In this document: positions 4,312 to 47,606 of the stretch, piece by piece
How the letters are laid out: the number at the start of each line of letters is the position of its first letter
Position numbering within the stretch: position 1 is the first letter of the stretch
IMG/VR virus record: IMGVR_UViG_3300042445_003239
Length of the DNA stretch: 64,000 nucleotides
Source of the DNA: an uncultured virus (IMG/VR IMGVR_UViG_3300042445_003239)
Lineage: Duplodnaviria; Heunggongvirae; Uroviricota; Caudoviricetes
Strand: one strand, 5' to 3'
Notes under the pieces: model-generated
Told to the model about the DNA's origin: nothing
Database searches by the model: none
The model's input: only the letters and a program-made list of their open reading frames with translations
Made by a program: the position numbers and the translations under genes

Positions 4312-4776
4312 ATGAATAGAGAACTTAAATTTCGCGTATGGAACAAATCAACCAAAAGCTGGTTGAACGATGATGCAGGAACACACTGTTGGGGCGAATA
4401 TTGTCTTAACATCTTTACTGGAGAGGTTGTGGAAATTGTTACAACTGACAACAAATTTTTCAGTAGAGACAGTGAGCCAAACTTTTATTTTGATAAAAAT
4501 ACACATGTAAAAGAATCTCCTTATGTTGTTCAACAATACACTGGTTGCTATGATAAGAATCGCACACCAATCTACGAAGGCGATATTCTCGCTGCTGATC
4601 ATGATGGCGGAGAAGATGAAGCTAATATTGGTGTCGTCTACTTCGCAGCGGGTACATACATGATTGATGGTGATGGTCCGTTTTTTGATCATGTCTATGG
4701 TCATTCACCTGACATTTTAGACAATCATACTGTAATTGGAAATAAGTTTGAAAACCCTGAACTATTAAAACGATAA
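4312..4776 (+). CDS. YopX-family protein
   Basis: RELKFRVW N-terminus, QYTGCYDKN..IYEGDI, VIGNKFENPELL C-terminus. Confidence 0.88.
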   Translation: MNRELKFRVWNKSTKSWLNDDAGTHCWGEYCLNIFTGEVVEIVTTDNKFFSRDSEPNFYFDKNTHVKESPYVVQQYTGCYDKNRTPIYEGDILAADHDGGEDEANIGVVYFAAGTYMIDGDGPFFDHVYGHSPDILDNHTVIGNKFENPELLKR

Positions 4777-4793
4777 AGAATATAAATTAAATT

Positions 4794-5285
4794 ATGAGCG
4801 AAACATTTAAAAACGTAGGAGAGATGTTGGATTATTTTACAAAAGAAGAAATGATTCAAGAAAGGTTTTCAGAACGTCTGATGGCAGCATATCCACAACT
4901 CTTTCCAAAGGATGATGAGGGTAAACCAAAACAACCTGATTGTGGAGCATGGTGTCCAGTTGGATGGCAACCTATGGTGGAAGAGCTATGCTCTAAGCTC
5001 GCCAAGATTGTTGATGAAAATAATCTAACTTTCGAGATTGGTCAAATCAAAGAAAAGTTCGGAGGATTGCGATTTTATTACTCTTATGAAGGCGATCGCG
5101 TTGAAGAAATTAAAAGTCTGATTAGTGATGCCGAAGATCGTAGCTTTAAGATTTGTGAAGTCACGGGTGAAGCTGGTAGCCTTTGCACTAAGGGCAAAGG
5201 CTATGGTTGGATAAAGACACTATCTTCTGGTGAAGCGGGGCGACAGGGTTATAAACTCTTAAAAGAAGAAATTGAAATAGAATGA
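4794..5285 (+). CDS. conserved phage hypothetical protein
   Basis: GW...QIKEKFGGLRFY...ICEVTG...GWIKTL motif pattern. Confidence 0.7.
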   Translation: MSETFKNVGEMLDYFTKEEMIQERFSERLMAAYPQLFPKDDEGKPKQPDCGAWCPVGWQPMVEELCSKLAKIVDENNLTFEIGQIKEKFGGLRFYYSYEGDRVEEIKSLISDAEDRSFKICEVTGEAGSLCTKGKGYGWIKTLSSGEAGRQGYKLLKEEIEIE

Positions 5286-11691: not shown

Positions 11692-12792
11692 ATGAATAAA
11701 AAAGCACTCATAACTGGTATTACTGGACAGGATGGTTCATATCTTGCCGAATTGCTTCTTGAAAAGGGCTATGAAGTTCATGGCATTAAACGCAGATCTT
11801 CATCCTTTAATACATCACGCATTGATCATCTTTATAAAGATCCGCATGAAGATAATAACATGTTTCATCTGCATTATGGCGATCTTTCAGATAGTTCAAA
11901 TCTAATAAGACTTGTCAAAGAAATTGAGCCTGATGAAATTTATAACTTAGGTGCACAATCTCATGTTGCTGTCTCATTTGATTTGCCAGAATATACTGCT
12001 GATGTTGATGCATTAGGATCATTGCGATTGCTTGAAGCAATTCGTTTTCTTGGATTAGAAAAAAAGACCCGTTATTATCAGGCATCAACATCTGAATTAT
12101 ATGGCAATGTACAAAACGAGATTCAAACCGAAAAAACTCCATTTTATCCTCGTTCCCCTTATGGAGTCGCTAAGCTATATGCATATTGGATAACAGTAAA
12201 CTATAGAGAAGCATATGGCATATATGCTTGTAATGGCATTCTTTTTAATCATGAATCACCTCGCCGAGGAGAAACCTTTGTAACGCGAAAAATAACGCGA
12301 GGCATAGCGAATATTGCTCTTGCTCTAGAAAAAACTTTATTTCTTGGTAATCTTAATGCATTAAGAGATTGGGGTCATGCTAAAGATTATGTTAGAATGC
12401 AATGGATGATGCTGCAACAAGATTCTCCTGATGATTTTGTTATTGCCAGTGGTAAACAAATTTCCGTAAGAGAATTTGTAAGAATGTCCGCAAAATATGC
12501 AGGCATTGAAATTGATTTTAAAGGCGAAGGCCTCGATGAAATTGGCATTGTTTCTGCCATTAGTGATTCATCAAAGGCAAGCGGTGTTAAAGTTGGTGAT
12601 ATTATTATACGAATCGATCCACAATATTTTCGACCAGCCGAAGTTGAAACATTGCTAGGCGATCCATCAAAAGCAATGGAAAAACTTGGTTGGAAACCCG
12701 AGATTAGTGTTGAACAAATGTGTGAAGAAATGATAATTCACGATTTAAGGGAAGCTAATCGCATGACTCTGCTTAAAGAAAATGGCTATTAA
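11692..12792 (+). CDS. gmd: GDP-mannose 4,6-dehydratase
   Basis: [64 protein letters not shown]. Confidence 0.97.
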
Positions 12793-13732
12793 TATGAAGA
12801 AATTATATATTGCCGGACACAACGGAATGGTAGGCTCTGCTTTAGTACGAGCTGTAGAAAAAAGTGACAAATATGAATTGATTGTTGCATCACGAGATCA
12901 GCTTGATCTGTTGGATCAAAGAGCAGTATTTGACTTTCTTAATGAAAAGAAACCAGATGTTGTTATTATTGCTGCCGCGAAGGTTGGAGGAATTCATGCA
13001 AATTCTCAATATCCAGCAGAATTTATATATGAGAATCTTACAATAGCTTCAAATATTATAGAGGGCAGTCGTCGCGCTAATGTACAACGGCTCTTAAACT
13101 TAGGAAGTTCTTGTATCTATCCTAAGCAATCACCTCAACCAATTAAAGAAAGTTATTTGCTTGAATCACAATTGGAAGTTACTAATGAAGCATATGCGGT
13201 TGCAAAAATTGCTGCACTAAAAATGTGCCAACACTATCGCAATCAATATGATCTTCTTTATCATTCTGCTATGCCTACAAATTTATATGGAACAGGTGAT
13301 AATTATCATCCTGAAAATAGTCACGTTGTTCCTGGACTTATTCGTCGCATTCATCAGGCTAAAATTGACCAATCACCAAGTGTAACTATTTGGGGTACAG
13401 GCAATCCTCGAAGAGAATTTTTGCATGTTGATGATCTTGCTGTTGCATGCATGACTCTTATTGAGCAAGCAAATCCACCTGATTGGATCAATATCGGCAC
13501 AGGCTATGATATTAGCATAAAAGAATTAGCTGAACTAATTATCGATATTGTTGGATTTAAAGGCACAATTGAAAATGATTATAGCAAAGCCGATGGCACT
13601 CCACAAAAACTTCTTGATGTAAGTCTATGTGAGCAGATGGGTTGGCGCGCCACAATATCTTTACGGGATGGTTTGGAGAGAGCCTATAGATCATTTCTTG
13701 AAGAAATTGAGTCAAAAACGCTAAGAATGTGA
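12782..13732 (+). CDS. fcl: GDP-L-fucose synthase
   Basis: [58 protein letters not shown]. Confidence 0.95.
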
Positions 13733-19523: not shown

Positions 19524-20166
19524 GAAAAATCGTAAAGACTATCACAACATCAAGTTTTGCAGTGACCTGCATTTTGGCCATGATAAAGATTTTGTCTATG
19601 CCAAACGCGGATTCAACAGCGCACGTGAGCATGCACTATGGCTCATTGACCAATTGGAGACACTGCACAGCGATGACCTGCTTGTGGTATTGGGCGATGT
19701 TGGTTTGAGTATCGGACCAGACTCTATTGCTGAACTTGTTCGTAGCCTTAAATGCGAAACACTTATGGTCTGGGGTAATCATAACAGCGGTGTTAAACAG
19801 CTTTATGATGCAGCACTGCCTGATGAATATAAGAGCTGTGAAATTTATCCGCTGCGGATTACTCACAATGTGACAATGCTTGGAGACTCTGCGATGCTGC
19901 ATGTTGACTCACGTCGTTACTATCTTACACATATGTGTCCGCTTGTATGGCCTGAGCTAGGCCGCGGTGCAGTTACACTCTGTGGACATAGCCATGGCTC
20001 GCTCAAAGGTATTAATGCACATCACAGTGTACATGACATTTACGGGCCGATCCTTGATTGTGGAATTGAAAACACTCTCTCATATAACAAGAGTGCATTT
20101 TTCACGGTTGAAGAGGTGGACACCATTCTCTCAGGCCGAAAAAAAGCTGCAATTGATCATCATTAA
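19510..20166 (+). CDS. calcineurin-like metallophosphoesterase
   Basis: SDLHFGH, LGD, GNH, GHSH motifs. Confidence 0.88.
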   Translation: MIRIKKNRKDYHNIKFCSDLHFGHDKDFVYAKRGFNSAREHALWLIDQLETLHSDDLLVVLGDVGLSIGPDSIAELVRSLKCETLMVWGNHNSGVKQLYDAALPDEYKSCEIYPLRITHNVTMLGDSAMLHVDSRRYYLTHMCPLVWPELGRGAVTLCGHSHGSLKGINAHHSVHDIYGPILDCGIENTLSYNKSAFFTVEEVDTILSGRKKAAIDHH

Positions 20167-20189
20167 GCCGTTTTAGGCGGTTTTTACAG

Positions 20190-20280
20190 AGTGAAAAACC
20201 TATACGTATCTATAGGTTTTTCACTTTTTTCACATTTTCATCATTTTTTGTTTTACAAGTATGTGTTTTTATGGTAGAAT
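20190..20280 (+). promoter_or_regulatory. stem-loop plus early promoter
   Basis: AGTGAAAAACCTATA-N6-TATAGGTTTTTCACT 20190-20225; TTTACA 20252-57, TAGAAT 20275-80. Confidence 0.8.
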
Positions 20281-20302
20281 AATCATGTAACCAAACCACA
20301 TT

Positions 20303-20683
20303 ATGAATCTATCAGAAATTAAGCAAGCAGTTCGTGAAGGCAAAACCGTTCATTGGGGCACCACGGCATATGTCGTAACTCTTTTCGAGAAAGGCGGAGA
20401 GGAATATTGGAACATCAAATGTCCTTGGAATAATTACTGCTTTGGCTTGACTGGTGCAAATGATACACTCGAATGCAAGGAAGAAGACTTCTTCATCGTG
20501 GCGTATTGCTCTCTCCCTTCACACGAAGAAATCTCGGAACAAATTTTAAAATTTGTAGATCTTTGCCTAAACACACCTGAGATGCATAACAGAGAATCAC
20601 TGGATATGCTTATTGCCGATCTGCAGCAATACCGAAACACTATTCCCACATGTGAGGAATATATGGAACAAAATCTGCTCTAA
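20303..20683 (+). CDS. hypothetical early protein
   Basis: MNLSEIKQAVREGKTVHW. Confidence 0.65.
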   Translation: MNLSEIKQAVREGKTVHWGTTAYVVTLFEKGGEEYWNIKCPWNNYCFGLTGANDTLECKEEDFFIVAYCSLPSHEEISEQILKFVDLCLNTPEMHNRESLDMLIADLQQYRNTIPTCEEYMEQNLL

Positions 20684-20878
20684 GAACTCGTAACTCAAAT
20701 AACACTATATATTATGATCAACGAAGAAATTGAATTTAATCTTATTGAAAAACGTATTCGCGAATTGAACAATATTGAGTGTCTCGACGAAGATCAACTA
20801 TTTGAATATACCGAATTGCTTCGTCAGCGTTGGGAACTTATGAAATCAATTCTTTGGGGTTAACATTAAACTTATATT

Positions 20879-21184
20879 ATGATCAGCGAAGAACGAGTTG
20901 AAACACTAAAGAGCGTCAAATCTCGCCAAGCCATTTGGACCGAATGGATGCGCCGCCTTGTTCGCTGGGGCTGGTTTGCATGTTTTCTTGGGAACCATGA
21001 GTGGTATCGTCGCCTCTACGGAGGTCTTTGGGCGCATGTCCACGTCGAGGAACCTTGCTACTCCTGCATGTGGCTCAACTGCCCCGTGGGTGCTGATGAA
21101 ACCTACCGCGAATGGAACTGGCGCGGCACTCCAGAGTTCCGCAATTACGATTCAGCGAACGCCTCTGTGGAGGCACGCCAATAA
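20879..21184 (+). CDS. hypothetical protein; AT-rich N-terminus fused to first cassette
   Basis: RRLVR at 20951-65 is encoded by an attC 3' arm; stop lies in the loop of the next attC. Confidence 0.6.
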   Translation: MISEERVETLKSVKSRQAIWTEWMRRLVRWGWFACFLGNHEWYRRLYGGLWAHVHVEEPCYSCMWLNCPVGADETYREWNWRGTPEFRNYDSANASVEARQ

Positions 21185-21239
21185 CGACTATGAATACACC
21201 AACAGACTCCGAGGCGTTGCCTCTCACGAATTGTTCGGC
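21154..21239 (-). repeat. attC-like site 1
   Basis: AGCGAAC...GTG-GAGGCA-CGCC / GGCG-t-TGCCTC-t-CAC...GTTCGGC. Confidence 0.85.
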
Positions 21240-21456
21240 TTCTTTGATTCCGCACTTAACCTTCAAAGATTACAATGGAGGAACAATGCGTGAGTGGCGA
21301 ATCTTCTGCCAAAGCGGGTGCGGTGGTGAGGGGTTTTACTGTAAGACCAAGGCTGAATGCGTGGAACAGGCGTGGTCTGCTGGGTGGCGTGTTTTTAGTG
21401 GAAAGCCCAAATGTAATAATTGTCTGCCGAACAGGCAAGATCAGGAGCGGCAATAG
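21190..21456 (+). CDS. cassette ORF, Cys-rich (CxxxC...CxxC)
   Basis: ATG in loop of attC1, stop TAG at the apex of attC2. Confidence 0.6.
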   Translation: MNTPTDSEALPLTNCSASLIPHLTFKDYNGGTMREWRIFCQSGCGGEGFYCKTKAECVEQAWSAGWRVFSGKPKCNNCLPNRQDQERQ

Positions 21457-21482
21457 CCGTGTTCTGTATCGACATGTTCAAT
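21426..21482 (-). repeat. attC-like site 2 (57 bp)
   Basis: GCCGAAC...GAT-CAGGA-GCGGC-aata-GCCGT-g-TTCTG-t-ATC...GTTCAAT. Confidence 0.75.
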
Positions 21483-21492
21483 TTACAACAAT

Positions 21493-21804
21493 ATGAAAAC
21501 AGAATCAGACTCAAATAACACGGCGGGCGCGGTTGCTCAGGAGCGACTTGTTCGGTGTGTTTGGAATAACCTAGCGGCTTCGCTAATCTGCACGCCCTTG
21601 CTCAGTGGAATCACTGTATTCACATACGGGCTAGGCGGTCATGCTGACTTAGTTGCATGGTGCGCTGCTGCCCTCGGACTGTCCGTTGGATGGATGGCGG
21701 GACTGTGTGGCGTGCTCGTTGTAATTTCTTCACCGAACGTCGATGTGATGGCATCGCTGCCGAACGCAAAGCACACGCACCCGCCCACTCAAAACCATGA
21801 ATAA
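21493..21804 (+). CDS. cassette ORF, membrane protein
   Basis: QERLVR from an attC 3' arm (GTTCGGT 21550-56); two hydrophobic helices. Confidence 0.6.
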   Translation: MKTESDSNNTAGAVAQERLVRCVWNNLAASLICTPLLSGITVFTYGLGGHADLVAWCAAALGLSVGWMAGLCGVLVVISSPNVDVMASLPNAKHTHPPTQNHE

Positions 21805-21846
21805 AGAACAGACTTCCAGCGGGTTGCGTGATGCGGCTTGTTGTGC
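21759..21846 (-). repeat. attC-like site 3
   Basis: GCCGAAC...GCA-CACGCA-CCCGC / GCGGG-t-TGCGTG-a-TGC...GTTGTGC. Confidence 0.88.
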
Positions 21847-22075
21847 CGTTGATTTTGACGGGTGGCCTTTTGTGGTCACTATCGACCGCAACAGGATGGA
21901 ACGCAGATATGTCCTGAGAACGGTTGATACCACAGACGGATTGATGGCTGCAAGAAACGATCCGATGACGGGGGAAGAGTTCAGGGAACACTACGGATTC
22001 AGCGAGGAGTTCCCGCACGAATTTATTCAGCACAACGCCCAAGGTGACTTACAGAGTCCCGACAAAAAATCATGA
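21797..22075 (+). CDS. cassette ORF, hypothetical
   Basis: Start in attC3 loop, stop in attC4 loop. Confidence 0.6.
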   Translation: MNKEQTSSGLRDAACCAVDFDGWPFVVTIDRNRMERRYVLRTVDTTDGLMAARNDPMTGEEFREHYGFSEEFPHEFIQHNAQGDLQSPDKKS

Positions 22076-22127
22076 ATACACCAAAAGACCCAACGGGAGG
22101 CTGTTGTCCTCCACCGCCTTGTTCGCC
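22030..22127 (-). repeat. attC-like site 4 (imperfect stem)
   Basis: GCACAAC...GGTG..ACAG..TCCCG / CGGGA..CTGT..CACC...GTTCGCC. Confidence 0.7.
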
Positions 22128-22740
22128 ATTTGTGGTTCACTGCAAACGGTCGAAGCATGACGTGTGTATCGGCAGGCCGTCGAAATGGGGAAACCCGTTT
22201 GAGATTGGGAAGGACGGCGACCGGGAAACCGTGATCCGAAAATACCGTGAATGGGTAGTAACTCAACCGCATCTCATGGCTGCGCTGCATGAACTGCGCG
22301 GAAAAGTGTTGGGGTGCTGGTGCGCTCCGCAAGCCTGCCACGGGGACGTTCTTGTTTCTTTGGCGAACGATCAAGGTGAGGCACGGGCGGAAAGCGCCAC
22401 TCCGATACCTCATAAACTCTCTAAGCACATGGAAACTTCGACACACACCGCCCCGCCCGTTGTCCTCGACCACCTTGTTAGCTCTTCTTGGGCGATTCGG
22501 TTCCTCAAGGAATGTCCCACGGGATACAAGGAGGCGATTCGACGAGCAGGGGAACCCGTGGAAATATACGAAACCGACGAGACGGGAGATGTCCAGTGGG
22601 CGATTACGTTGGAGGACGGATTCTGGATGGATGCGCTACCAACTAAGGAGGAGGCCGAGAGTCTTGTGGCTGATATGGGATGGCCGATTATTGGAGCTAA
22701 CGTCGAGGTAGCCCACGAATCGGGCGAGAAAAGATCATGA
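22072..22740 (+). CDS. DUF4326-like domain fused in frame through attC5 to a second cassette ORF
   Basis: VVHCK...IGRPSKWGNPF...LRGKVLGCWCAPQACHGDVL; in-frame ATG at 22429 in attC5 loop. Confidence 0.75.
   Translation: MNTPKDPTGGCCPPPPCSPFVVHCKRSKHDVCIGRPSKWGNPFEIGKDGDRETVIRKYREWVVTQPHLMAALHELRGKVLGCWCAPQACHGDVLVSLANDQGEARAESATPIPHKLSKHMETSTHTAPPVVLDHLVSSSWAIRFLKECPTGYKEAIRRAGEPVEIYETDETGDVQWAITLEDGFWMDALPTKEEAESLVADMGWPIIGANVEVAHESGEKRS
22362..22483 (-). repeat. attC-like site 5
   Basis: GGCGAAC...GGT-GAGGCA-CGGGCGG / CCGCCCG-t-TGTCCTC-g-ACC...GTTAGCT. Confidence 0.82.
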
Positions 22741-22792
22741 ATACAAAACCAACTCCACCGCCCGATTCGTTGGGCTCACCGTCTTGTGGTGC
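22695..22792 (-). repeat. attC-like site 6
   Basis: AGCTAAC...GGT-AGCCCA-CGAATCGGGCG / CGCCCGATTCG-t-TGGGCT-c-ACC...GTGGTGC (GTT core changed to GTG). Confidence 0.88.
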
Positions 22793-23096
22793 TTCTTCCG
22801 AACCCGAGTGGAAGCCCGACTACACAAAGACCCCTCGCCGCGTGGTATGCGCTGCTAATCGGCACCGTGTGAACAAGCTGCTAATCATCTGCGGTGCTCG
22901 GCACTGGGACAAGCTCATGAGGGTGCAAGCCAATGCTATGGGTCACGACTTCAAAGCATGGGATCAAGGATTCGTGGATCAGTTCGGGGACTGGATGACC
23001 CGTGAAGAAGCGTGGATCGTCGCCGTCGATCAGAACCAAGTCCGTCGACGCTGCGGGGGCGATGGCGAGCGGCTGTTCAGCGAGAACCTTTATTAG
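22737..23096 (+). CDS. cassette ORF, conserved phage-type hypothetical protein
   Basis: VVCAANR...GARH.D...QGFVDQFG..MTREEA...LFSENLY. Confidence 0.75.
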   Translation: MNTKPTPPPDSLGSPSCGASSEPEWKPDYTKTPRRVVCAANRHRVNKLLIICGARHWDKLMRVQANAMGHDFKAWDQGFVDQFGDWMTREEAWIVAVDQNQVRRRCGGDGERLFSENLY

Positions 23097-23149
23097 CACA
23101 ACAGCCAAGCACAGGCACGCCCAGCGTTGCTTGATGCGGAATGTTCGGA
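23096..23149 (-). repeat. attC-like site 7 (54 bp)
   Basis: GCACAAC...GCA-CAGGCA-CGC-cca-GCG-t-TGCTTG-a-TGC...GTTCGGA. Confidence 0.85.
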
Positions 23150-23164
23150 ACAACAAACAATAAA

Positions 23165-23362
23165 ATGAACCAACACCTCAAGAAAACAATCACAAAGATA
23201 CGTCGTCAGCGAAGAAACGGAAGGTCTAACAAGAAAAGCATTCAAAAAGGACACGTCCACAAATGGAATCTCGGATGCACAATCATTATCGGGAAAAGAA
23301 CCCCCATGAGGTATCATTGGTGCTATTGCGGAGACCATAGAACAACTGAAATAAACTCATGA
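23165..23362 (+). CDS. cassette ORF, small basic protein
   Basis: MNQHLKK...HVHKW...HWCYCG. Confidence 0.45.
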   Translation: MNQHLKKTITKIRRQRRNGRSNKKSIQKGHVHKWNLGCTIIIGKRTPMRYHWCYCGDHRTTEINS

Positions 23363-23425
23363 CTGGTCTCGAAGAAATGACAGACAAAAACAGAGAAGAG
23401 AAAATAGCAAGGCTGCGAGTTCTCT

Positions 23426-23517
23426 GCCGAACGACAAAGATCTGGCGCGGCGGGCGCTGGACTCCGAATAAACCAAACAGGCAACTTCCCGCCGTTGCCA
23501 GCATTCACTTGTTAGCC
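23426..23517 (-). repeat. attC-like site 8
   Basis: GCCGAAC...GAT-CTGGCG-CGGCGGG / CCCGCCG-t-TGCCAG-c-ATT...GTTAGCC. Confidence 0.85.
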
Positions 23518-23528
23518 TCTTACGAATT

Positions 23529-23726
23529 ATGAAGAAACTCCGCAAACTAAAAACAGGTAGCCGCCAATGGCTTGCACAACTCATGGAAACCGTAATCGGG
23601 GAATGCCCCGAACTGGTCGAATGCGACCATTGCGGGCGAGTAATCCGAAACGGGTATGTCTGCTGCCACTGCGGAAGCGATGACCCTGGTGAAAACATCA
23701 TCCGCCCCGAGGAATTTCTTGGCTAA
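23529..23726 (+). CDS. cassette ORF, zinc-ribbon protein
   Basis: CDHC...CCHC; stop TAA inside the GGCTAAC core of attC9. Confidence 0.6.
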   Translation: MKKLRKLKTGSRQWLAQLMETVIGECPELVECDHCGRVIRNGYVCCHCGSDDPGENIIRPEEFLG

Positions 23727-23852
23727 CGCCACAGCGCAGACACCGCCGATCTACAACCAAACAAACGACCAAAACACCAATGAACTCTGAATTGCCAAAC
23801 GATACCCAAAACACCAGCAACAAGGCGGTTGATCTGCCGCGACTTGTTCGGC
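23721..23852 (-). repeat. attC-like site 9
   Basis: GGCTAAC...GCG-CAGACA-CCGCC / GGCGG-t-TGATCTG-c-CGC...GTTCGGC; the minus strand reads GCCGAACAAGTCGCGGCAG...GGCGTTAGCC. Confidence 0.85.
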
Positions 23853-24124
23853 TTCTTGCGGTGGCTCAACCAGTGATGGAAGCATGGGCAAAATACCACG
23901 AACTGGACGAGTGGCATTGTCGCTGCGAAGACATGATCGGCACGGCATACCCGCGCAATCTCTGCCCCGTGTGCTGTGTGGAGTCCTCGATCAACTGGCG
24001 GGACGGTAAGCCGTATTACTACTGCCCCGATCACGGCGAACTGGATGACCTTTATTCTGAGCCGAACGCACAAGGTGAGGCACGCGGCGAGAGCGCCACT
24101 CCGACCACGCCCAAACCTCAGTAA
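23780..24124 (+). CDS. cassette ORF, Cys/His zinc-finger-like
   Basis: Start in attC9 loop; CPVC...CPDHG; ends within the partial site at 24061. Confidence 0.6.
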   Translation: MNSELPNDTQNTSNKAVDLPRLVRLLAVAQPVMEAWAKYHELDEWHCRCEDMIGTAYPRNLCPVCCVESSINWRDGKPYYYCPDHGELDDLYSEPNAQGEARGESATPTTPKPQ

Positions 24125-24256
24125 CTACCATGGAAAATCAAATTGGTGATGACGAATGTGGATATTGGGAAAGATACGAATATGATGATGAAGGCAACGA
24201 GATACTACACGAAAGCTTGATCCAATCATCTGTTAGACTTGAAGACGACGAAAATT

Positions 24257-24484
24257 ATGAAACATTTACAAGACATCCCTTGCTTTGATTGCGACGGCAC
24301 TCTGCGTGTCGAATATCAGAAGTTCGACAAAACGGTCGAAGGACAAAACTATGTTGTGGAGAATGTGCCTGTTCATAAGTGTGACTCTTGCGGAGATGAA
24401 GTCTTAAGCTCTGCGGCATGTCGCTACATTGAAGAACAGCTACCGCCTCGTCCACTGCGTGGCCCACGGCGCATCAAGGACTAA
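24257..24484 (+). CDS. YgiT/MqsA-type zinc-finger protein
   Basis: CFDCDG...VVENVPVHKCDSCGDEVLS. Confidence 0.8.
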   Translation: MKHLQDIPCFDCDGTLRVEYQKFDKTVEGQNYVVENVPVHKCDSCGDEVLSSAACRYIEEQLPPRPLRGPRRIKD

Positions 24485-24514
24485 AAAAGTCTCCCCAAGG
24501 AGTATTTTTGTGAA

Positions 24515-24570
24515 AAAAATGCATTTTTTCGCATTTTTTTATTTACAAGTGTGCATTTTTGTGGTAGAAT
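24515..24570 (+). promoter_or_regulatory. early promoter (PeSL-like family)
   Basis: AAAAAATGCATTTTTT palindrome; TTTACA 24542-47, TAGAAT 24565-70. Confidence 0.8.
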
Positions 24571-24592
24571 AATCTTGTAACCAAATCACATC

Positions 24593-24745
24593 ATGACCGA
24601 TAATAAAGAATACTACGAAATGTTCGCCGCCGTTCAAAGAGGCGAGATCACTCAAGAGGCTTGGGTTGACTACTGCATGAAGCTGCTCGCTGATATCATG
24701 GAAGACAACAAAGATGTCTTCATCCGTTTGAAGTACCGCGGCTAA
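24593..24745 (+). CDS. small hypothetical early protein
   Basis: MTDNKEYYEMF...VFIRLKYRG, 50 aa, after promoter. Confidence 0.6.
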   Translation: MTDNKEYYEMFAAVQRGEITQEAWVDYCMKLLADIMEDNKDVFIRLKYRG

Positions 24746-24768
24746 ACGAACTCTGATACAATATCATT

Positions 24769-25002
24769 ATGACCAAAGTAACTCCTGAAGAAATCGCGAT
24801 CCTTAAACGTATCGCTGCAATTGAGAGCATCTCCCACACAGTCGAACGGATGTGTAATGTTGAGGATTATGATTGTTTTTACTCACGTGTCCACGGTAAG
24901 TCTTTTGAATGGTGTGCGCGCTATGATAGCTTTGAAGACTTCATTCGCGATTACGCTAAATTCAAATATGAATGCGGCTACCAAACTGCAGCAAGTTGGT
25001 AA
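24769..25002 (+). CDS. hypothetical protein
   Basis: ORF starts at the repeat ATG. Confidence 0.6.
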   Translation: MTKVTPEEIAILKRIAAIESISHTVERMCNVEDYDCFYSRVHGKSFEWCARYDSFEDFIRDYAKFKYECGYQTAASW

Positions 25003-25024
25003 CTAACTCCGATACAATATCATT

Positions 25025-25273
25025 ATGAAAGAACACATTTTCTACGGCCAGCTCAACCAAGCCAATCGTCTCTTCATTCAAGAGAAGGCTAAGACTAAAA
25101 AGGATGGAGTGTATCAAGCTCGCTGGATTGGCTTCCGTGTCCGCAATGGTCAGGTAACTCACTATGTTAAGCATGCTGAGATACTTGCCAACTATGGAGC
25201 ATTCGTCACTCCAGTTGGAACATTCAGCAACAACGATGCAGCACTCAAAGCACTCAAAGCACTCAAAGATTAA
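25025..25273 (+). CDS. hypothetical protein
   Basis: ORF starts at the repeat ATG. Confidence 0.6.
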   Translation: MKEHIFYGQLNQANRLFIQEKAKTKKDGVYQARWIGFRVRNGQVTHYVKHAEILANYGAFVTPVGTFSNNDAALKALKALKD

Positions 25274-25296
25274 ACGAACTCTGATACAATATCATT

Positions 25297-25587
25297 ATGA
25301 CACCACACTACACATTCTGGCAACACATCTCTCCGATTCGCATAATGCAACGTCACGTCGAGCACACTGTTAAGGTTACTCACCTTGGTGGAGGAGTCTA
25401 TGGTTGCCGAGTATTCCTGAATGGAGCGCTCAATGCTGAGAATCGCTGCCGAGGCAAGGCGCATATTGGAGCTGCTTGCCGCGACTTGTTGCGCTGGGAG
25501 AGTAAGCTTGCCAACTGGTCTGACTATGCTCAATGCTCTCGCTCTCGCGGTGGTCGCAAACAAGCAGCTCGAACAAACAAACACTAA
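25297..25587 (+). CDS. hypothetical protein
   Basis: ORF starts at the repeat ATG. Confidence 0.6.
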   Translation: MTPHYTFWQHISPIRIMQRHVEHTVKVTHLGGGVYGCRVFLNGALNAENRCRGKAHIGAACRDLLRWESKLANWSDYAQCSRSRGGRKQAARTNKH

Positions 25588-43067: not shown

Positions 43068-43376
43068 ATGCCCAGTGAAATAAGCGACTATATTTTCATT
43101 GACGATCCCGCAAACCAAAATGTTTGTGGGATCCAATGCACAAACGCAAAGTACTATGGAATACGATATAAGTATGGTACCATAAGCGTAGATGAAGATG
43201 TGAAACATGATAAGTGTCAATTAAATTTTGACTATAAAATTATTTACAAACCAGCGTGTTTTGATATAATTGACTTAAACGCAGACACCGACTTTAAAAA
43301 CTTTGCTGGTGATGTCTTGTGCGATATCTTAACAAATCAGGAATACAAAATTGGAAAACATGGAGACAAATCTTGA
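43068..43376 (+). CDS. hypothetical protein (gp40-like position)
   Basis: Between uvsX and gp41 as in T4-like gene order. Confidence 0.55.
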   Translation: MPSEISDYIFIDDPANQNVCGIQCTNAKYYGIRYKYGTISVDEDVKHDKCQLNFDYKIIYKPACFDIIDLNADTDFKNFAGDVLCDILTNQEYKIGKHGDKS

Positions 43377-44001
43377 AACAACAATCATTAACAATCTTAT
43401 ACACAATGAAGTATTTTGTCGCAAAGCGCTGCCACACATAAAGCCTGAATATTTTGATGGTATTCATCGCACTATATATGAGGCTATCTTAAAGTTTATT
43501 ACCAAGTATAATAAGCTGCCAAACAGTACAGCATTAAGTATTGAATATAAGGCGTCTGACGCTAGTCGTAATGCCAATGCAGCCGAGGTTAACTATTACA
43601 TCAATGCATTATCAGAACACCTAACGGTTGACGAGCAATGGATTATTGATAGTACCGAAAAATGGTGTAAGGACCGTGCAGTATATCTTGCCATCATGGA
43701 GTCAATCTCTATCATTGATGGTAAAGATCTTGAAAAGAGTGAAGGCTCAATTCCTACTATATTAAGTAAAGCATTAAGCGTCACTTTTGATACAAATGTA
43801 GGACACGATTACCTTGAGAATGCTGAAAGCCGTTATGAATTTTATCATAAGACCGAAGATAAGATACCATTTGATCTTGATATGTTTAATGTTATTACAG
43901 GCGGAGGTATACCACGCAAGACGCTTAATATTATTCTTGCCGGCTGTGTTCACCCTGAGACTCCAATTCGAGTAAGGATTCATAAGAAAATTCTTTCTTA
44001 G
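43360..44001 (+). CDS. gp41 replicative helicase fragment 1 (N-extein, 195 aa) + 18-aa split-intein N fragment
   Basis: TEKWCKDRA, GHDY, TGGG..KTLNIILAG then CVHPET (intein block A) at 43945. Confidence 0.9.
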   Translation: METNLETTIINNLIHNEVFCRKALPHIKPEYFDGIHRTIYEAILKFITKYNKLPNSTALSIEYKASDASRNANAAEVNYYINALSEHLTVDEQWIIDSTEKWCKDRAVYLAIMESISIIDGKDLEKSEGSIPTILSKALSVTFDTNVGHDYLENAESRYEFYHKTEDKIPFDLDMFNVITGGGIPRKTLNIILAGCVHPETPIRVRIHKKILS

Positions 44002-44746
44002 ACCGCTTGCGATCTGGTTGGTAATTGCGTGCTTTTCCTAATTGCCAACCACGCAAAAGCAATTCAAATATCTTATTGGTTTCAATACGAAATGTTTTTT
44101 CTCCGTTATTCACATATTCTTTTCCACCATCTTTCATACCGTATTGCCATCCTTCATCAATTTTTTGTTGAATTTCATTATAAAGACATCGTGTTATAAC
44201 ATCGTTTTTATGAATCCATAATTTACCAATATGTGATTTTCCTCCCATATGTCCACGCTTCGAGCGGCCTTCCTTTGAGGCCCAATACGCCCATGGGTTA
44301 TTGGGCGAAATTATTGAAGCTTTTCCACCAAGTGATGCAAATTTTGAAAAGTTTTCTGGATTGTGAATGCCTAATTTATTTTTAATTTGTGTCTTAATTC
44401 CTTTACGTGAAATTTCAGCTCGATCTTCCTTACCAATTGAAAACATTCCTATCTTATTCTCATAACACCATTTGCCAACAATACGTCTTTGTTCATATGT
44501 TAAATTTGCTCCTAGCATATGCATTGATCGTAGGTCATTAACCATACCATGAATTTTCCACAATAAGAAATGTGCTGCTATATGCTGTCTAATACTAAGG
44601 TAAGTAAAATTACTTTCATCTTCTCCGCCGCCCGCATGTCGTGGAATGATATGATGTTTATGTATGTTTGATCCTTTACAATAATGAATTTTGTTATTTA
44701 CATTTTCATTACATATGTTATAATAGATTCGAGCGTAAAATTTCAT
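43931..44746 (-). CDS. free-standing HNH homing endonuclease
   Basis: HKHHIIPRHAGG.....N...L..RQH..AH.LL; C-terminal repeats W..G; only confidently called minus-strand gene; probable start ATG 44746. Confidence 0.85.
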   Translation of the reverse strand: MKFYARIYYNICNENVNNKIHYCKGSNIHKHHIIPRHAGGGEDESNFTYLSIRQHIAAHFLLWKIHGMVNDLRSMHMLGANLTYEQRRIVGKWCYENKIGMFSIGKEDRAEISRKGIKTQIKNKLGIHNPENFSKFASLGGKASIISPNNPWAYWASKEGRSKRGHMGGKSHIGKLWIHKNDVITRCLYNEIQQKIDEGWQYGMKDGGKEYVNNGEKTFRIETNKIFELLLRGWQLGKARNYQPDRKRSKKEFSYESLLELESQGEHSRQE

Positions 44747-44755
44747 AAGATTGAT

Positions 44756-44783
44756 TCCTGTTCCAGCTAACATTATATTTATA
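44756..44783 (-). promoter_or_regulatory. late promoter TATAAATA (44783-44776) overlapping a homing-site-like sequence
   Basis: Minus strand AAT ATA ATG TTA GCT GGA ACA GGA = NIMLAGTG. Confidence 0.6.
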
Positions 44784-44799
44784 CAAATCACACCTTTAT

Positions 44800-45978
44800 A
44801 TGACCGAAAAAATTATTAAAATTAAAGAAATTGAAGAGCTCCTGAATGCAGGATACACAATAGAAGTAGATTCACCCGATGGTTTTGTTCCCGTATCAGC
44901 ATTTGTTGATAAAGGAATGTGGGAAGAATACGTTTTATTGCTTAATAGCGGAAAAGTTATTCGAGTCAATGAAAATCACTTGTTTGAAACTATTGATGGT
45001 TGGCAATATGCAAAAGATCTAGTTCTTAAAAAACAGCAATATCTGACTGAAGACGGATACCAAATTGGTATTGTTACAAAAACAGGAAAGCAAATTCCAA
45101 TCGTTGATATTCAAGTTGAGCATGAAAATCACCGATACTATACTGATGGTGTTTCTTCACATAATACGGGTTGCGGAAAGAGCTTAGGTATGTGTCACAT
45201 GGCAAGCGCTGCATTGGCACAAGGTCGTAATGTACTATACATTACAATGGAAATGGCTGAAGAAAAGATTGCAGAACGTATTGATGCCAATCTTTTTGAT
45301 GTTCGTATTGACCAATTAAAAGACTTGACTAAAGCATCATTCAACACAAAGGTTAAAGGTATTAGCGATAAAACCAAAGGTAAACTTGTTGTCAAAGAAT
45401 ATCCAACCGCGAGCGCACACGTTGGTCACTTTCGCGCATTGTTACTTGAACTCAAATTGAAAAAGAAGTTTGAGCCAGACATCATTTATATTGATTATCT
45501 AAACATTTGCGCGAGTAGTCGCATGAAAGGATTGAGCGGTAGTGTCAATACTTATAGTCTTATCAAAAGTATTGCTGAAGAAATTCGTGGATTGGCTGTT
45601 GAATTTAATGTTCCTATCTGGAGCGCAACTCAAGTTACAAGAGCGGGATATTCCAGCAGTGATATCGAAATTACGGATACAAGTGAATGTATTGCTATTA
45701 CTGAATCCGTTACTATGCGTGATGGACAAGTTAAAACACTCGATGAAGTTAAACTAGGTGACCAAATTACTGCAAATGATGAATATAAAACAGTAATGTT
45801 TAAGCATCATAATAAGATGAAAGATTGTGTAAAGATTACAACCGAAAGCGGTAAATCAATAATTGTTTCGAAGGATCATGTATTTCCATGTAAAAACAAT
45901 GGGAATGTTAAACGTATTAGTGTTAATACCGGATTAAATGTTTCAGACATTCTATCTGTTGTACTCGGCAAAATGTAA
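44800..45978 (+). CDS. gp41 helicase fragment 2: intein-1 C fragment (122 aa) + middle extein (174 aa) + intein-2 N fragment (96 aa)
   Basis: ENHLF, VDIQV, SSHN|TGCGKS at 45165/66; YITMEM, IDYLNI, SATQVTR; DTSE|CIA at 45688; SKDHVF. Confidence 0.92.
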   Translation: MTEKIIKIKEIEELLNAGYTIEVDSPDGFVPVSAFVDKGMWEEYVLLLNSGKVIRVNENHLFETIDGWQYAKDLVLKKQQYLTEDGYQIGIVTKTGKQIPIVDIQVEHENHRYYTDGVSSHNTGCGKSLGMCHMASAALAQGRNVLYITMEMAEEKIAERIDANLFDVRIDQLKDLTKASFNTKVKGISDKTKGKLVVKEYPTASAHVGHFRALLLELKLKKKFEPDIIYIDYLNICASSRMKGLSGSVNTYSLIKSIAEEIRGLAVEFNVPIWSATQVTRAGYSSSDIEITDTSECIAITESVTMRDGQVKTLDEVKLGDQITANDEYKTVMFKHHNKMKDCVKITTESGKSIIVSKDHVFPCKNNGNVKRISVNTGLNVSDILSVVLGKM

Positions 45979-46009
45979 TTATTATAAATAATATCATACT
46001 ACAGATTTT

Positions 46010-47071
46010 ATGATAGCTATTACTGATCCATTAGAGAGAAAACCCATACGTGACATAATTAATAAATTGCCTGATGATAAAAAACAATATTTTATTCAAT
46101 TTATAGCTGAATATATTGGTCATAAAAAACTATCATCGTCCCTTAAGCGCAAATATGAATTGTTTAAAGACATACTTATGAATAATGAAAATTCATATAT
46201 TTCATTATTCACAGAATACAATTCATCTAATAATCAATATCGTAAAGCGGATATTAGACATGGCTTAGGCTCAGGTAAAAAGTTAAAAACCACATACGCG
46301 GCGCGGCCCAAAGCGGTAAATATTAATTCATGCTTTACGATTACTTATTGGATTGCTAAAGGCTTATCTGCCGAAGAAGCCAAAAAGCAGGTTTCTGAAT
46401 TGCAAAGTAAAAACTCAAAGAAGAAGCATCATAAATTTAAATTGAACAGCTTAAGTTATAAAGAATATTTACCCAATTGTATTGAATATTGGATTGCTAG
46501 AGGCTATGATTTAAACGAGTCGGAAATTCTCAGAAAACAAATTTCTATAAAATCTGAGTTATCATATGCAAATTATATTGAAAAATATGGGTTTGATATA
46601 GGTACGACTAAATTAAAAGCACAGCACGAAAAACGAAAGGCTACATTGATTGAACGGTTTGGCACAACTGCAGTGAATGGCAAATGCTCAAAGGAATCAC
46701 TTAAATTTTTCATCCCGCTTTATAAAAGTATTAGAAAACTAGGTGTTAATAAAAATGATATCTTTTGGGGCATTCGCGGAAGTAAAGAATTTGCGCATCA
46801 TTATAATGGCATGAACTTCTTTTATGATTTTACGATTCAATCATTAAAAATAACAATTGAATATAATGGTGCATTTTGGCACGCGCGTCCTGAAACTGAG
46901 TGGAAAGGCTTTGGATCTAAAGAAGAAAACCTTGCTTATAACCATATTAAAGAAAATACTATTAAACAGTACGGCCATGATTTATACATTGTATGGTCGG
47001 ACGAAGATCTTGAATTAAAAAGAAATACTATAACACAAAATATTAAAGAAAAATACTATGCAACCGCTTGA
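46010..47071 (+). CDS. free-standing endonuclease, Vsr/DUF559-like PD-(D/E)xK C-terminal domain
   Basis: FFYDF.....ITIEYNGAFWH, IVW; two YWIA(K/R)G repeats; TATAAATA at 45983-90. Confidence 0.8.
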   Translation: MIAITDPLERKPIRDIINKLPDDKKQYFIQFIAEYIGHKKLSSSLKRKYELFKDILMNNENSYISLFTEYNSSNNQYRKADIRHGLGSGKKLKTTYAARPKAVNINSCFTITYWIAKGLSAEEAKKQVSELQSKNSKKKHHKFKLNSLSYKEYLPNCIEYWIARGYDLNESEILRKQISIKSELSYANYIEKYGFDIGTTKLKAQHEKRKATLIERFGTTAVNGKCSKESLKFFIPLYKSIRKLGVNKNDIFWGIRGSKEFAHHYNGMNFFYDFTIQSLKITIEYNGAFWHARPETEWKGFGSKEENLAYNHIKENTIKQYGHDLYIVWSDEDLELKRNTITQNIKEKYYATA

Positions 47072-47606
47072 AGAATATTGTCTAATTAAAGCAAATGAGC
47101 TTATCACAAAGGGTATGGTGTCCGAACATACCGATGTTTTTGAATTAACTGATATGTTAATTGCGCTTGAAACTGAAAAAATTGATAAGAATACAAAAAG
47201 TGATCTTAACCTAAATTATAATGATCCTATTGTTTCTATTGAGGATGTTGGTGAGGTTGAAACTACAGACATTTCAACCTCAGGCGATAACCTATTTTAC
47301 TGCAACGGCATTTTAACAAAAAACAGTTTTGGACTACCTGCAACAGCCGATTTGATGCTTGCATTTATTCGCACCGAACAACTTGACAAGATGAATCAAA
47401 TTATGGTTAAGCAACTTAAGAATCGGTACAATGATCCAACAACCAACAAGCGATTTACTATTGGAATTGATTTACCAAAGATGAGACTGTATGATATTAG
47501 TGATCCTATGGCAAACATCTCAACAGAGCCTGATAACACGCCTGTGGCCAATACGCCGTTTAGTTCTGGACGAAAGTCTCGTGCAGTGAGTGGCTTAAAT
47601 GTGTAA
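47058..47606 (+). CDS. gp41 helicase fragment 3: intein-2 C fragment (89 aa) + C-extein (93 aa)
   Basis: IVSIEDVG...TDIST...LFYCNGILTKN|SFGLPATADLM; KQLKNRY, F.IGID..KMRLYD. Confidence 0.92.
   Translation: MQPLEEYCLIKANELITKGMVSEHTDVFELTDMLIALETEKIDKNTKSDLNLNYNDPIVSIEDVGEVETTDISTSGDNLFYCNGILTKNSFGLPATADLMLAFIRTEQLDKMNQIMVKQLKNRYNDPTTNKRFTIGIDLPKMRLYDISDPMANISTEPDNTPVANTPFSSGRKSRAVSGLNV

Follow-up and report, generated by a model that had tools for sequence, protein, structure and literature searches.

Integrons have been treated as a bacterial device, and clusters of attC sites in phages were first reported in 2023, as small, rare finds. Here, we describe an array of attC-type hairpins in an uncultured virus of the Caudoviricetes (IMG/VR record IMGVR_UViG_3300042445_003239), of which a stretch of 64,000 nt (from here on, the window) was analyzed. 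The array occupies a block with a high guanine-plus-cytosine (GC) content at ~20945-24125 of the window, and we consider it probable, at roughly three chances in four, that this block consists of genuine attC cassettes of the integron type, which form a cluster without an integrase of its own (CALIN) in a T4-like lake phage.

In classical integron cassettes, the open reading frame (ORF) is on the top strand, the attC site is located 3' of the ORF, and expression is from the Pc promoter beside intI/attI. T4-type phages reportedly shuffle their early genes through repeated promoter/stem-loop modules, a scheme ascribed to Arbiol et al. 2010. The array region resembles such promoter-early stem-loop modules in that repeated elements border early accessory genes of small size within a hyperplastic region, a pattern that is fitted by the two 72-nt repeats described below; it differs from them in that the attC hairpins lack a promoter motif, carry a site-specific crossover signature, and are members of the integron site family. 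In the definition given in Cury et al. 2016 (PMC4889954), a CALIN comprises two or more attC sites separated by <4 kb, on one strand, and with no intI nearby. The main text of Qi, Rajabal, Ghaly, Tetu and Gillings 2023 (PMC9892861) reports 17 CALINs of two or more sites each from sequenced phage isolates, and also that, of six phage attC sites assayed with IntI1, five recombine with attI1. Phage clusters of attC sites without an integrase are, therefore, already known as such.

The array is similar to the CALINs of bacteria in that nine complete sites, all on the + strand and 125-400 nt apart, lie within 2.7 kb and in that the record has no PF00589 match, and it is different in that it is in a virus and not in a bacterial replicon, that the ORFs are on the bottom strand, and that a hairpin is cut through at each of its ends. 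It is not a complete integron: no intI is present in the record, which is 51% complete, and the array has no attI-like end, both ends being truncated hairpins. With the clusters in the main text of Qi et al. 2023 (PMC9892861), it shares that integrase-less attC sites are clustered in virulent phages; the differences are the scale, with arrays of 9 to ~20 sites in >20 uncultivated viral contigs, and the design, since the inverted polarity, the starts in hairpin loops, and the fixed crossover frame that we report here are not described in its abstract and section 3.4. A full-text literature search, for which most subscription journals are outside coverage, turned up only Qi et al. 2023 and no description of inverted or phage-type cassettes or of this site family.

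The hairpins have the architecture of an attC bottom strand

The block differs from the rest of the window in GC content (0.51-0.55 at 21001-24000 vs ~0.39 elsewhere) and is a run of short + strand ORFs parted by sites of the form NNNNAAC...GTTNNNN. We named the boxes of these sites by their position on the + strand, i.e., NNNNAAC is the 5' box and GTTNNNN is the 3' box. For the analyses below, 15 sites were aligned, nine of them belonging to the window and the other six to a second phage. The covariance model R1 was built from 15 phage sites only; its calibration was shortened, and its E-values are rough. On the 64-kb window, R1 found the nine complete sites (s1-s9) and nothing else, all on the + strand. 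Together with two truncated sites (s0 and s10), they make up the array, which is listed here with an extra box and with unpaired bases of the 3' arm numbered from the 3' end:

20945-20966, + strand: s0, remnant of a 3' arm with the 3' box GTTCGCT at 20960-20966; the left block junction is inside the hairpin
21154-21239, + strand: s1, attC-type site (AGCGAAC...GTTCGGC), R1 78.7 bits, fold z -2.21, unpaired bases at 16 and 23
21426-21556, + strand: s2, attC-type site of 131 nt with a long loop (GCCGAAC...GTTCGGT), R1 51.6 bits
21732-21738, + strand: extra 5' box ACCGAAC, the exact complement of the s2 3' box, 27 nt ahead of s3
21759-21846, + strand: s3, attC-type site (GCCGAAC...GTTGTGC), R1 75.5 bits
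22030-22127, + strand: s4, attC-type site (GCACAAC...GTTCGCC), R1 65.1 bits, unpaired bases at 16, 21, and 24
22362-22483, + strand: s5, attC-type site (GGCGAAC...GTTAGCT), R1 60.3 bits, with a 5' arm paralogous to that of s10
22695-22792, + strand: s6, attC-type site (AGCTAAC...GTGGTGC), R1 53.3 bits, with GTT mutated to GTG
23096-23149, + strand: s7, attC-type site in a short form of 54 nt (GCACAAC...GTTCGGA), R1 42 bits
23426-23517, + strand: s8, attC-type site (GCCGAAC...GTTAGCC), R1 66 bits
23721-23852, + strand: s9, attC-type site (GGCTAAC...GTTCGGC), R1 68.3 bits, with the ATG of ORF 10 in its loop
24061-24129, + strand: s10, truncated site at the right block junction, reduced to a 5' box (GCCGAAC), a 5' arm, and a portion of the loop

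The remnant s0 aligns with other 3' arms at 20948-20964 and, unlike every complete site, has no GTTG 17-18 nt upstream. The extra 5' box ahead of s3 is probably the leftover of a lost cassette.

According to passages of Nivina 2016 (PMC5027507), the attC bottom strand carries 5'-RYYYAAC in R', which is cut between A and C, and has a central spacer in which five to six bases of each arm are unpaired, as well as extrahelical bases at 16 (usually G) and 23/24 (a conserved T), which are separated by a 6-bp stem; the site length is given as 57-141 bp. A passage of Larouche and Roy 2011 (PMC3053210) gives the bottom-strand pattern, in the 5' to 3' direction, as T-N6-G. In our alignment, AAC is invariant in 15/15 sites and GTT is present in 14/15, s6 having GTG. 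The spacer has 5 nt on the 3' arm in all 15 sites and 5-7 nt on the 5' arm in 14 of them, with 9 nt in s6. An unpaired base at 16 and an unpaired T at 23/24, with six paired positions between them, were found on the 3' arm of all 15 sites and, thus, of all nine sites in the window; a third unpaired base is present at 21 in 6/15 sites. The length of the window sites ranges from 54 to 132 nt, which places all but the 54-nt s7 (8/9) inside the published range. Position 1 of the box is a purine in 9/9 window sites, and the inner positions deviate (GCCGAAC, GGCGAAC, AGCTAAC, GCACAAC). The AAC/GTT feet, the spacers, and the unpaired bases show that the hairpins have attC bottom-strand architecture on the + strand.

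The boxes of neighboring sites are related in a manner that the boxes of one hairpin are not. When the outer 4 nt of each 3' box were compared with those of the next 5' box, 9 of the 10 steps of this relay were perfect (39/40 nt); as 7-mers, 8 steps were perfect and 2 had one mismatch. By comparison, the outer 4 nt of the two boxes of the same hairpin match in 0/9 window sites, and 0/100,000 permutations of the box partners reached 9 matches. In other viral arrays (see below), 33 of 44 pairs of neighbors that are ≤600 nt apart relay perfectly, and the two boxes of one site match each other in 13/86 sites.

In the 15-site alignment, a structure of 16 pairs has 93.3% of its cells paired, and 11 of the 16 pairs show compensatory changes. 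None of 500 shuffles scored as high, and sliding the partners against each other lowered the pairing to 28-57%. This covariation supports the pairing of the sites. The energy of single-stranded DNA folding was not useful for telling these sites apart from controls: three of the nine sites are clearly stabler than shuffles (z -2.2, -2.2, and -4.4), and the stem of s6 is the most stable of the nine (fold z -4.41).

A preliminary description of the window, made by inspection of its letters, had pointed to a GC-rich 3.2-kb block with nine complete hairpins, a relay of 7-mers from site to site, and two unpaired bases ~6 nt apart on the 3' arm of most sites. The GC contrast was borne out by the values given above. 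Eight of the nine hairpin coordinates were returned exactly by R1, while the second site was found to extend over 21426-21556 and not 21426-21482. On recounting, the relay again had 8 perfect steps and 2 steps with one mismatch, with the permutations of the outer 4 nt showing how rarely chance would give it, and the two unpaired bases are present in 9/9 sites. The completeness of the hairpins as folded single strands held in part, in that covariation supports the pairing, but only 3/9 sites beat their shuffles.

R1 recognizes attC sites of bacterial integrons

On the class 1 integron plasmid CP057842.1 (intI1-dfrA1-aadA1-qacEdelta1), R1 matched attC(aadA1) at 4333-4392 (39.5 bits, E 8e-10) and attC(dfrA1) at 5189-5283 (15.4 bits, E 0.015). 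These matches are located directly 3' of aadA1 and dfrA1 and are on the intI1-sense, i.e., the bottom, strand. Sites on the intI-sense strand were also found in the integron of a Thiodictyon plasmid. A scan of the genome collection using one 5'-arm pattern gave six loci, of which four contain R1 matches; these are from metagenome-assembled genomes (MAGs) of Luteolibacter, Verrucomicrobiia, and Planctomycetaceae and from one unclassified MAG. The remaining two loci, both from Lachnospiraceae, had no R1 match and were set aside as chance matches to the pattern.

The contig of the unclassified MAG (L104; MAG G016) is a complete chromosomal integron. It has 17 R1 sites, all on the intI-sense strand, together with an integron integrase at 12039-13115 (TIGR02249, 337.7 bits with a cut-off of 265; 42.7% identical to IntI1), and it also carries tpiA. 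The relay holds at 14 of its 16 steps and continues from the last site to a GCCCAAC that has no hairpin and is located ~470 nt before intI, where attI is expected. Using Pfam, 16 of the 17 ORFs of the L104 array were without a match, as were two ORFs past the far end of the array; ORFs without a Pfam match are usual for integron cassettes. The phage array and the classical integrons of CP057842.1 and L104 have in common the site architecture, the crossover triplet, the relay, and the location of R1 matches on the intI-sense strand. Altogether, these data support that the phage sites are integron-type attC sites by every structural feature testable here except the box consensus, to which the boxes conform loosely.

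Phage cassette ORFs are on the recombinogenic strand and usually start in a hairpin loop

In the class 1 integron and L104, which served as controls, the ORFs are on the strand opposite the R1 matches, and 11 of 16 cassettes of L104 are open only on the strand opposite the sites. Among eight cassettes of the window, 3 are open on the site strand only, 0 on the opposite strand only, 4 on both strands, and 1 on neither; for 50 cassettes from other viral arrays, the corresponding numbers are 14, 2, 27, and 7. A frame that begins at an ATG within the site extends as far as the next site in 6/8 window cassettes and 30/50 other viral cassettes. At the far end of the cassette, the longest incoming ORF reads the AAC of the next site as a codon in 60/76 viral sites and 6/9 window sites. 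At 52 of these 60 in-frame sites, the ORF stops inside the site, in 35 cases via an ATGA overlap. Because the AAC is in frame and the ORF stops inside the site, the upstream protein takes its last residues and its stop codon from the next hairpin.

These data show that phage cassettes have their ORF on the recombinogenic (bottom) strand, usually starting in the hairpin loop, and that they are in this respect the inverse of the classical cassette: the attC is at the 5' end and provides the start codon, and expression is presumably from a phage early promoter. With an ATG in the loop, an in-frame AAC (Asn), and a stop codon in the next hairpin, any order of cassettes would give complete and translationally coupled genes. 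We infer that this inverted, frame-standardized design serves expression in phages. A cassette of the phage type, with a bottom-strand ORF, an ATG in the attC loop, and a zinc-ribbon protein as its product, is located at 9718-10126 of L104 amid cassettes of classical polarity. The presence of this phage-type cassette in a bacterial integron may reflect traffic in both directions.

The ORFs of the array are as follows:

20879-21184, + strand: ORF 1, 101 aa, a fusion in which an AT-rich phage leader and the first ~22 codons are joined to a GC-rich cassette
21190-21456, + strand: ORF 2, 88 aa, Cys-rich, starts in the s1 loop
21493-21804, + strand: ORF 3, 103 aa, predicted membrane protein, starts in the s2 loop
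21797-22075, + strand: ORF 4, 92 aa, starts in the s3 loop
22072-22740, + strand: ORF 5, 222 aa, DUF4326 domain at residues 22-95 (Pfam PF14216, E 5e-28) followed by a second module
22737-23096, + strand: ORF 6, 119 aa, phrog_839 family (E 8e-33), with its own stop just ahead of the s7 5' box
23165-23362, + strand: ORF 7, 65 aa, basic and Cys/His-rich, starts beyond s7
23529-23726, + strand: ORF 9, 65 aa, zinc-ribbon-like (CxxC...CxxC), starts 12 nt past s8
23780-24124, + strand: ORF 10, 114 aa, Cys-rich, ends inside the truncated s10

ORF 1, the leader of which is repeated (20708-20728 and 20873-20893), terminates in the loop of s1, and this loop contains both its stop codon and the ATG of ORF 2. 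Similarly, ORF 4 stops and ORF 5 starts at an ATGA overlap in the loop of s4. ORF 5, which also matches phrog_464 (E 1e-34), passes s5 without a stop, and the DUF4326 domain is in this way fused to the product of the next cassette, i.e., two cassettes are joined; the 5' arm of s10, the paralogue of the s5 5' arm, does contain a stop. The TAA stop of ORF 9 falls within the 5' box of s9 (GGCTAAC), and the match of its product to a Ribosomal_L32p-type zinc ribbon is weak and under the cut-off (E 0.005). ORF 3 has no family match in Pfam or PHROG, and ORF 7 likewise gave no family match. The block ends just past the ATG in the s10 loop (24130), which now opens an AT-rich phage ORF.

Related arrays in other viruses point to a crossover in the 5' arm

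Using a pattern scan of IMG/VR followed by R1, we found arrays of the same site family in >20 other viral contigs, which are 25-178 kb in size and have a GC content of 42-62%. The arrays have 9 to ~20 sites, the latter number in L029. Each array has its sites on a single strand, and the 64.5-kb record G013 has separate arrays on both strands. A contig that is 100% identical to the window adds no information here. One of the other contigs is a 36-kb phage record that is 96% complete (L040) and has genes for Erf, exonuclease VIII, SSB, and a Holliday-junction resolvase as well as a Mom-like gene.

Cassette 2 (s1 and ORF 2) is common to the window and L040. The two copies are ~85-88% identical from the AAC of s1 to the GCCGAAC of s2, while the flanks are unrelated on both sides and the 5' outer 4-mers differ (AGCG vs GGCT). 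We listed 28 pairs of near-identical hairpins located in different loci; as judged by eye and untallied, their 5' outer 4-mers nearly always differ, and their 3' outer 4-mers are mostly the same. Near-identical copies of s7 were found in at least six other viral contigs, each with a different 5' outer 4-mer. Based on the boundaries of the shared cassette 2 and the pattern of 4-mers in the hairpin pairs, a cassette consists of the C of AAC, the hairpin, the ORF, and NNNNAA. Sequence comparison thus locates the crossover to the AAC of the 5' arm, as expected for bottom-strand geometry.

The body of cassette 4 (ORF 4) is present at 94.5% identity in three lower-GC contigs (L044, L047, and L055), in which it is followed by an s7-type site and not by s4. 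A contig from run X14 has the same join (22031 to 23100, with 61 letters on the shorter side). Because cassette 4 precedes an s7-type site in these four contigs, the order of cassettes differs between phages, and cassettes reassort among phages.

Two of the other viral arrays have additional features. On the minus strand of L040 (G001), at ~4115, 3825, 3222, and 1812, four hairpin-less ends of the form NNNNAAC-ACCCCAGCACAGGA are located after short arrays. Each of them relays with the preceding 3' box, and a repeated promoter-like element of 50 nt is often their neighbor; in appearance, they resemble ends that are attI-like or belong to secondary sites. L029 (G006) has an 8-kb array with ~20 cassettes in a 46.6-kb viral record with 59% GC. 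By eye, this array includes DNA methyltransferase-like cassettes (DPPW motif), and some of its ORFs are seemingly on the opposite strand; a gene for a 444-aa Xer-like tyrosine recombinase is ~10 kb from the array.

The array was probably imported whole

The parent of the window is a 100.8-kb IMG/VR virus record with an estimated completeness of 51%. PHROG matches are in agreement with a T4-like myovirus (UvsX-like recombinase, gp41-type helicase, RnlA-type RNA ligase, NrdAB, PhoH, and thymidylate synthases). The stretch is present in 24 lake/freshwater metagenome runs from 24 studies, and this DNA may derive from six of these runs; in any one run, only those parts of the block that are covered by contigs were interpreted. 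Among GenBank phages, there was no match to the block in distant mode and none to the 15 kb around the block in near mode.

A 4.3-kb segment that contains the attC block is flanked by two direct repeats:

20235-20306, + strand: left 72-nt repeat, with TTTACA-17-TAGAAT and an upstream TG at 20252-20280 (10/12 promoter matches)
24525-24596, + strand: right 72-nt repeat, with TTTACA-17-TAGAAT at 24542-24570; 83% identical to the left copy

The left repeat is likely an early promoter that reads into the array. In contigs from four lake runs, position 20257 is joined to 24564 via 16 foreign letters, with only 22 letters on the shorter side of the joint. We take this joint as a weak indication that the DNA between the promoter repeats is different in relatives.

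At the left end of the block, the 3'-arm remnant is fused in frame to the AT-rich phage leader, and the right end is just past the ATG in the s10 loop. With both of its ends cut inside hairpins and a promoter repeat on either side, the array probably formed elsewhere and was then taken up in one piece. In such a scenario, the 3.2-kb array would have been assembled in phages with a higher GC content, would have entered the AT-rich phage as one piece via recombination that is not site-specific, and would now be transcribed from the flanking early-promoter repeats.

A host integrase as the candidate recombinase

Among the four R1-positive MAGs, the unclassified MAG (G016) and the Verrucomicrobiia MAG (G019) encode an IntI that scores over the cut-off. 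In the Planctomycetaceae MAG (G017), IntI is split in two adjacent frames (C456:14531-15122, L108/L110; 124.5 and 145.9 bits), which probably reflects a frameshifted pseudogene or a sequencing error. Nine IMG/VR contigs have relatives of the L104 IntI, and R1-type sites are located just upstream of the gene, on the intI strand, in four of them; the scores exceed the IntI cut-off in two of these four and fall just short of it in the other two.

A host integrase is plausible given that the record is without a tyrosine recombinase while IntI-bearing MAGs share the site family. That this site family adjoins true intI genes in bacterial MAGs, including the one from Verrucomicrobiia, makes the host enzyme the presumptive actor, and its use on phage sites is credible in light of the five of six phage attC sites that recombined under IntI1 in the main text of Qi et al. 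2023 (PMC9892861). The host would provide the integron integrase, and this enzyme would cut and join cassettes at AA|C on the folded single strand. Going further, lake phages of very different lineages (36-kb, T4-like, and 178-kb) may share a pool of phage-adapted cassettes that is shuffled by the infected cell's integron integrase, the cassettes being standardized for plug-and-play expression and moving in both directions between phages and bacteria. We put forward this wider proposal tentatively, at close to even odds but on the lower side of them.

Evidence against the attC reading and alternative explanations

Several observations weigh against the block being a set of genuine attC cassettes on which an integron integrase has acted. 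Counting 16 and 23/24 from the 3' end is our interpretation of published text passages, and the base at 16 is a G in only 3/15 aligned sites and 2/9 window sites. The sites follow RYYYAAC/GTTRRRY loosely, with GCCGAAC as the commonest form of the box, and 6/9 sites fold no better than shuffled sequence (z -0.76 to +0.12). The counts for ORF polarity are soft because many of the GC-rich cassettes are open on both strands. Neither a PF00589 protein nor an integron integrase is encoded in the 100.8-kb record, which is only 51% complete, and the 16 array-bearing viral records tested (this one included; three are 96-100% complete) have no integron integrase. Fourteen of these 16 records are without any tyrosine recombinase; those of the other two are Xer-like and far under the IntI cut-off (NCBIfam) and were rejected as integron integrases. 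Lastly, the joins at the ends of the block were not made by an integrase, since neither end lies at a box, and no polymorphism of the array was observed within this phage: a second contig is identical, and a 1,422-nt contig from run X11 keeps the order.

The absence of integron integrases from all 16 viral records, with no tyrosine recombinase in 14 and only Xer-like ones in two, would also be in agreement with the hairpins being substrates of another recombinase that acts on single-strand hairpins, either a host enzyme of the XerC/D type or an unrecognized phage enzyme, in which case the attC-like geometry would be due to shared ancestry or convergence. XerC/D-type enzymes act on the folded attP of CTX-type phages, and the departure of the box consensus from RYYYAAC is a further point in favor of such an enzyme. 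A search of nine array-bearing viral contigs for a common gene family, i.e., a candidate phage recombinase, found none in more than four of the contigs; as the nine share no universal family, a phage enzyme must vary between contigs or else the enzyme is that of the host. What makes this explanation improbable in our view is that the same sites, in canonical polarity, adjoin true intI genes (in L104 and in 4/9 of the IMG/VR contigs with IntI relatives), that R1, although derived from phages, recognizes attC(aadA1), a proven substrate of IntI1, and that the unpaired bases are at the positions that IntI reportedly reads. A different matter is whether the array is active in this phage. It may be an inert fossil that was imported once, by illegitimate or promoter-repeat recombination, and was kept only for its genes and their translational coupling; this would be compatible with the sites being attC. 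The two block ends cut inside hairpins, the location between promoter repeats across which contigs of four runs join, the GTG in place of GTT in s6, the read-through of s5 by ORF 5, and the identity of the array in the second contig and in contigs from other runs are all as expected of a fossil. Nevertheless, the nine sites retain their pairing, their unpaired bases, and a near-perfect relay, which decay is expected to erode, and homologues of the cassettes are ordered differently in other low-GC phage contigs as well as in run X14. Taking these points together, we regard an inert array as a serious candidate, with a likelihood that is somewhat below even.

Regulatory stem-loops, either terminators or T4-type promoter/stem-loop modules, could in principle be spread by homologous recombination and produce the relay as a by-product; promoter repeats do flank the region, and the start codons in the loops suggest a translational role. 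This explanation is very unlikely given that 0/12 promoter-like matches in 20000-25400 overlap the conserved parts of the hairpins, that the sole + strand promoter match in the block (23377-23405, 9/12) lies between s7 and s8, that promoter motifs are carried by the two 72-nt flanking repeats only, and that terminator-like matches are not enriched (6 vs a shuffle mean of 5.6). Moreover, homologous exchange would not yield a relay that is confined to the outer 4 nt and is found within 0/9 hairpins, and it does not account for R1 finding real attC sites beside intI. Still harder to credit is that bacterial DNA was mis-assembled onto phage DNA, as the sharp GC step at each end of the block might suggest. 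A stretch of 8 kb that includes both junctions is 100% identical in a second IMG/VR contig; Logan contigs from four other runs (X11, X14, X19, and X21) span the left and/or the right junction without a single difference; and in-frame ORFs cross both junctions. The identical second contig and the junction-spanning contigs of the four runs rule out an assembly artefact.

Integron-type cassettes as a possible means of exchange among phages

We consequently favor the block being a CALIN in a T4-like lake phage, and the identification of the hairpins as integron attC sites, already made in the preliminary description, is supported by their geometry, the relay, and the recognition by R1 of textbook attC sites and of an IntI-linked array. 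The same description had read the array in the classical manner, which is right as to the attC cassettes but not as to the ORFs, which are on the bottom strand, or the crossover, which is in the AAC of the 5' arm. Its view that the cassettes were assembled by recombination agrees with junctions at AAC in other phages, yet the assembly probably did not occur in this phage, the array having been made elsewhere and imported whole. Cargo of phage type was confirmed (DUF4326, E 5e-28; phrog_839, E 8e-33). The search for intI that it called for was negative in the record and positive in MAGs that bear the sites, and the comparison of cassette order showed differences between phages and an identical array within this phage.

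Starting from one window, R1 brought to light a large array family, present in uncultivated phages of fresh water, that combines classical geometry with inverted polarity and a standardized frame. If host integrases shuffle the cassettes, unrelated phages would exchange early accessory genes in a site-specific manner alongside homologous mosaicism, and bacterial integrons would be open to phage genes. The cargo of the arrays includes Mom-like (L040), DNA methyltransferase-like (L029, by eye), and DUF4326 genes, and Mom-like and methyltransferase-like cargo is of the kind linked to evading host restriction. Because attC is joined here to the 5' end of the gene, the inverted design also bears on the old question of how cassettes originate.

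Other features of the window

Using Rfam, which is without any attC family, at permissive thresholds, we obtained only a sub-threshold match to tsr25 at 20085-20228, outside the block (28.2 bits vs a gathering threshold of 63, E 0.0039), and this match is probably due to chance.

Downstream of the block, a 31-nt repeat is present in three copies (24743-24773, 24999-25029, and 25271-25301) that are 84-100% identical and each end in ATGA(C/A). The copies precede successive small ORFs and represent another repeated leader/promoter element.

The gp41/DnaB-type helicase is encoded in three ORFs (43351-43998, 44800-45975, and 47058-47603) in the region 43351-47603. Between the pieces are ORFs at 43934-44791 (minus strand) and 46010-47068, and the split could possibly be due to inserted homing elements, inteins, or introns.

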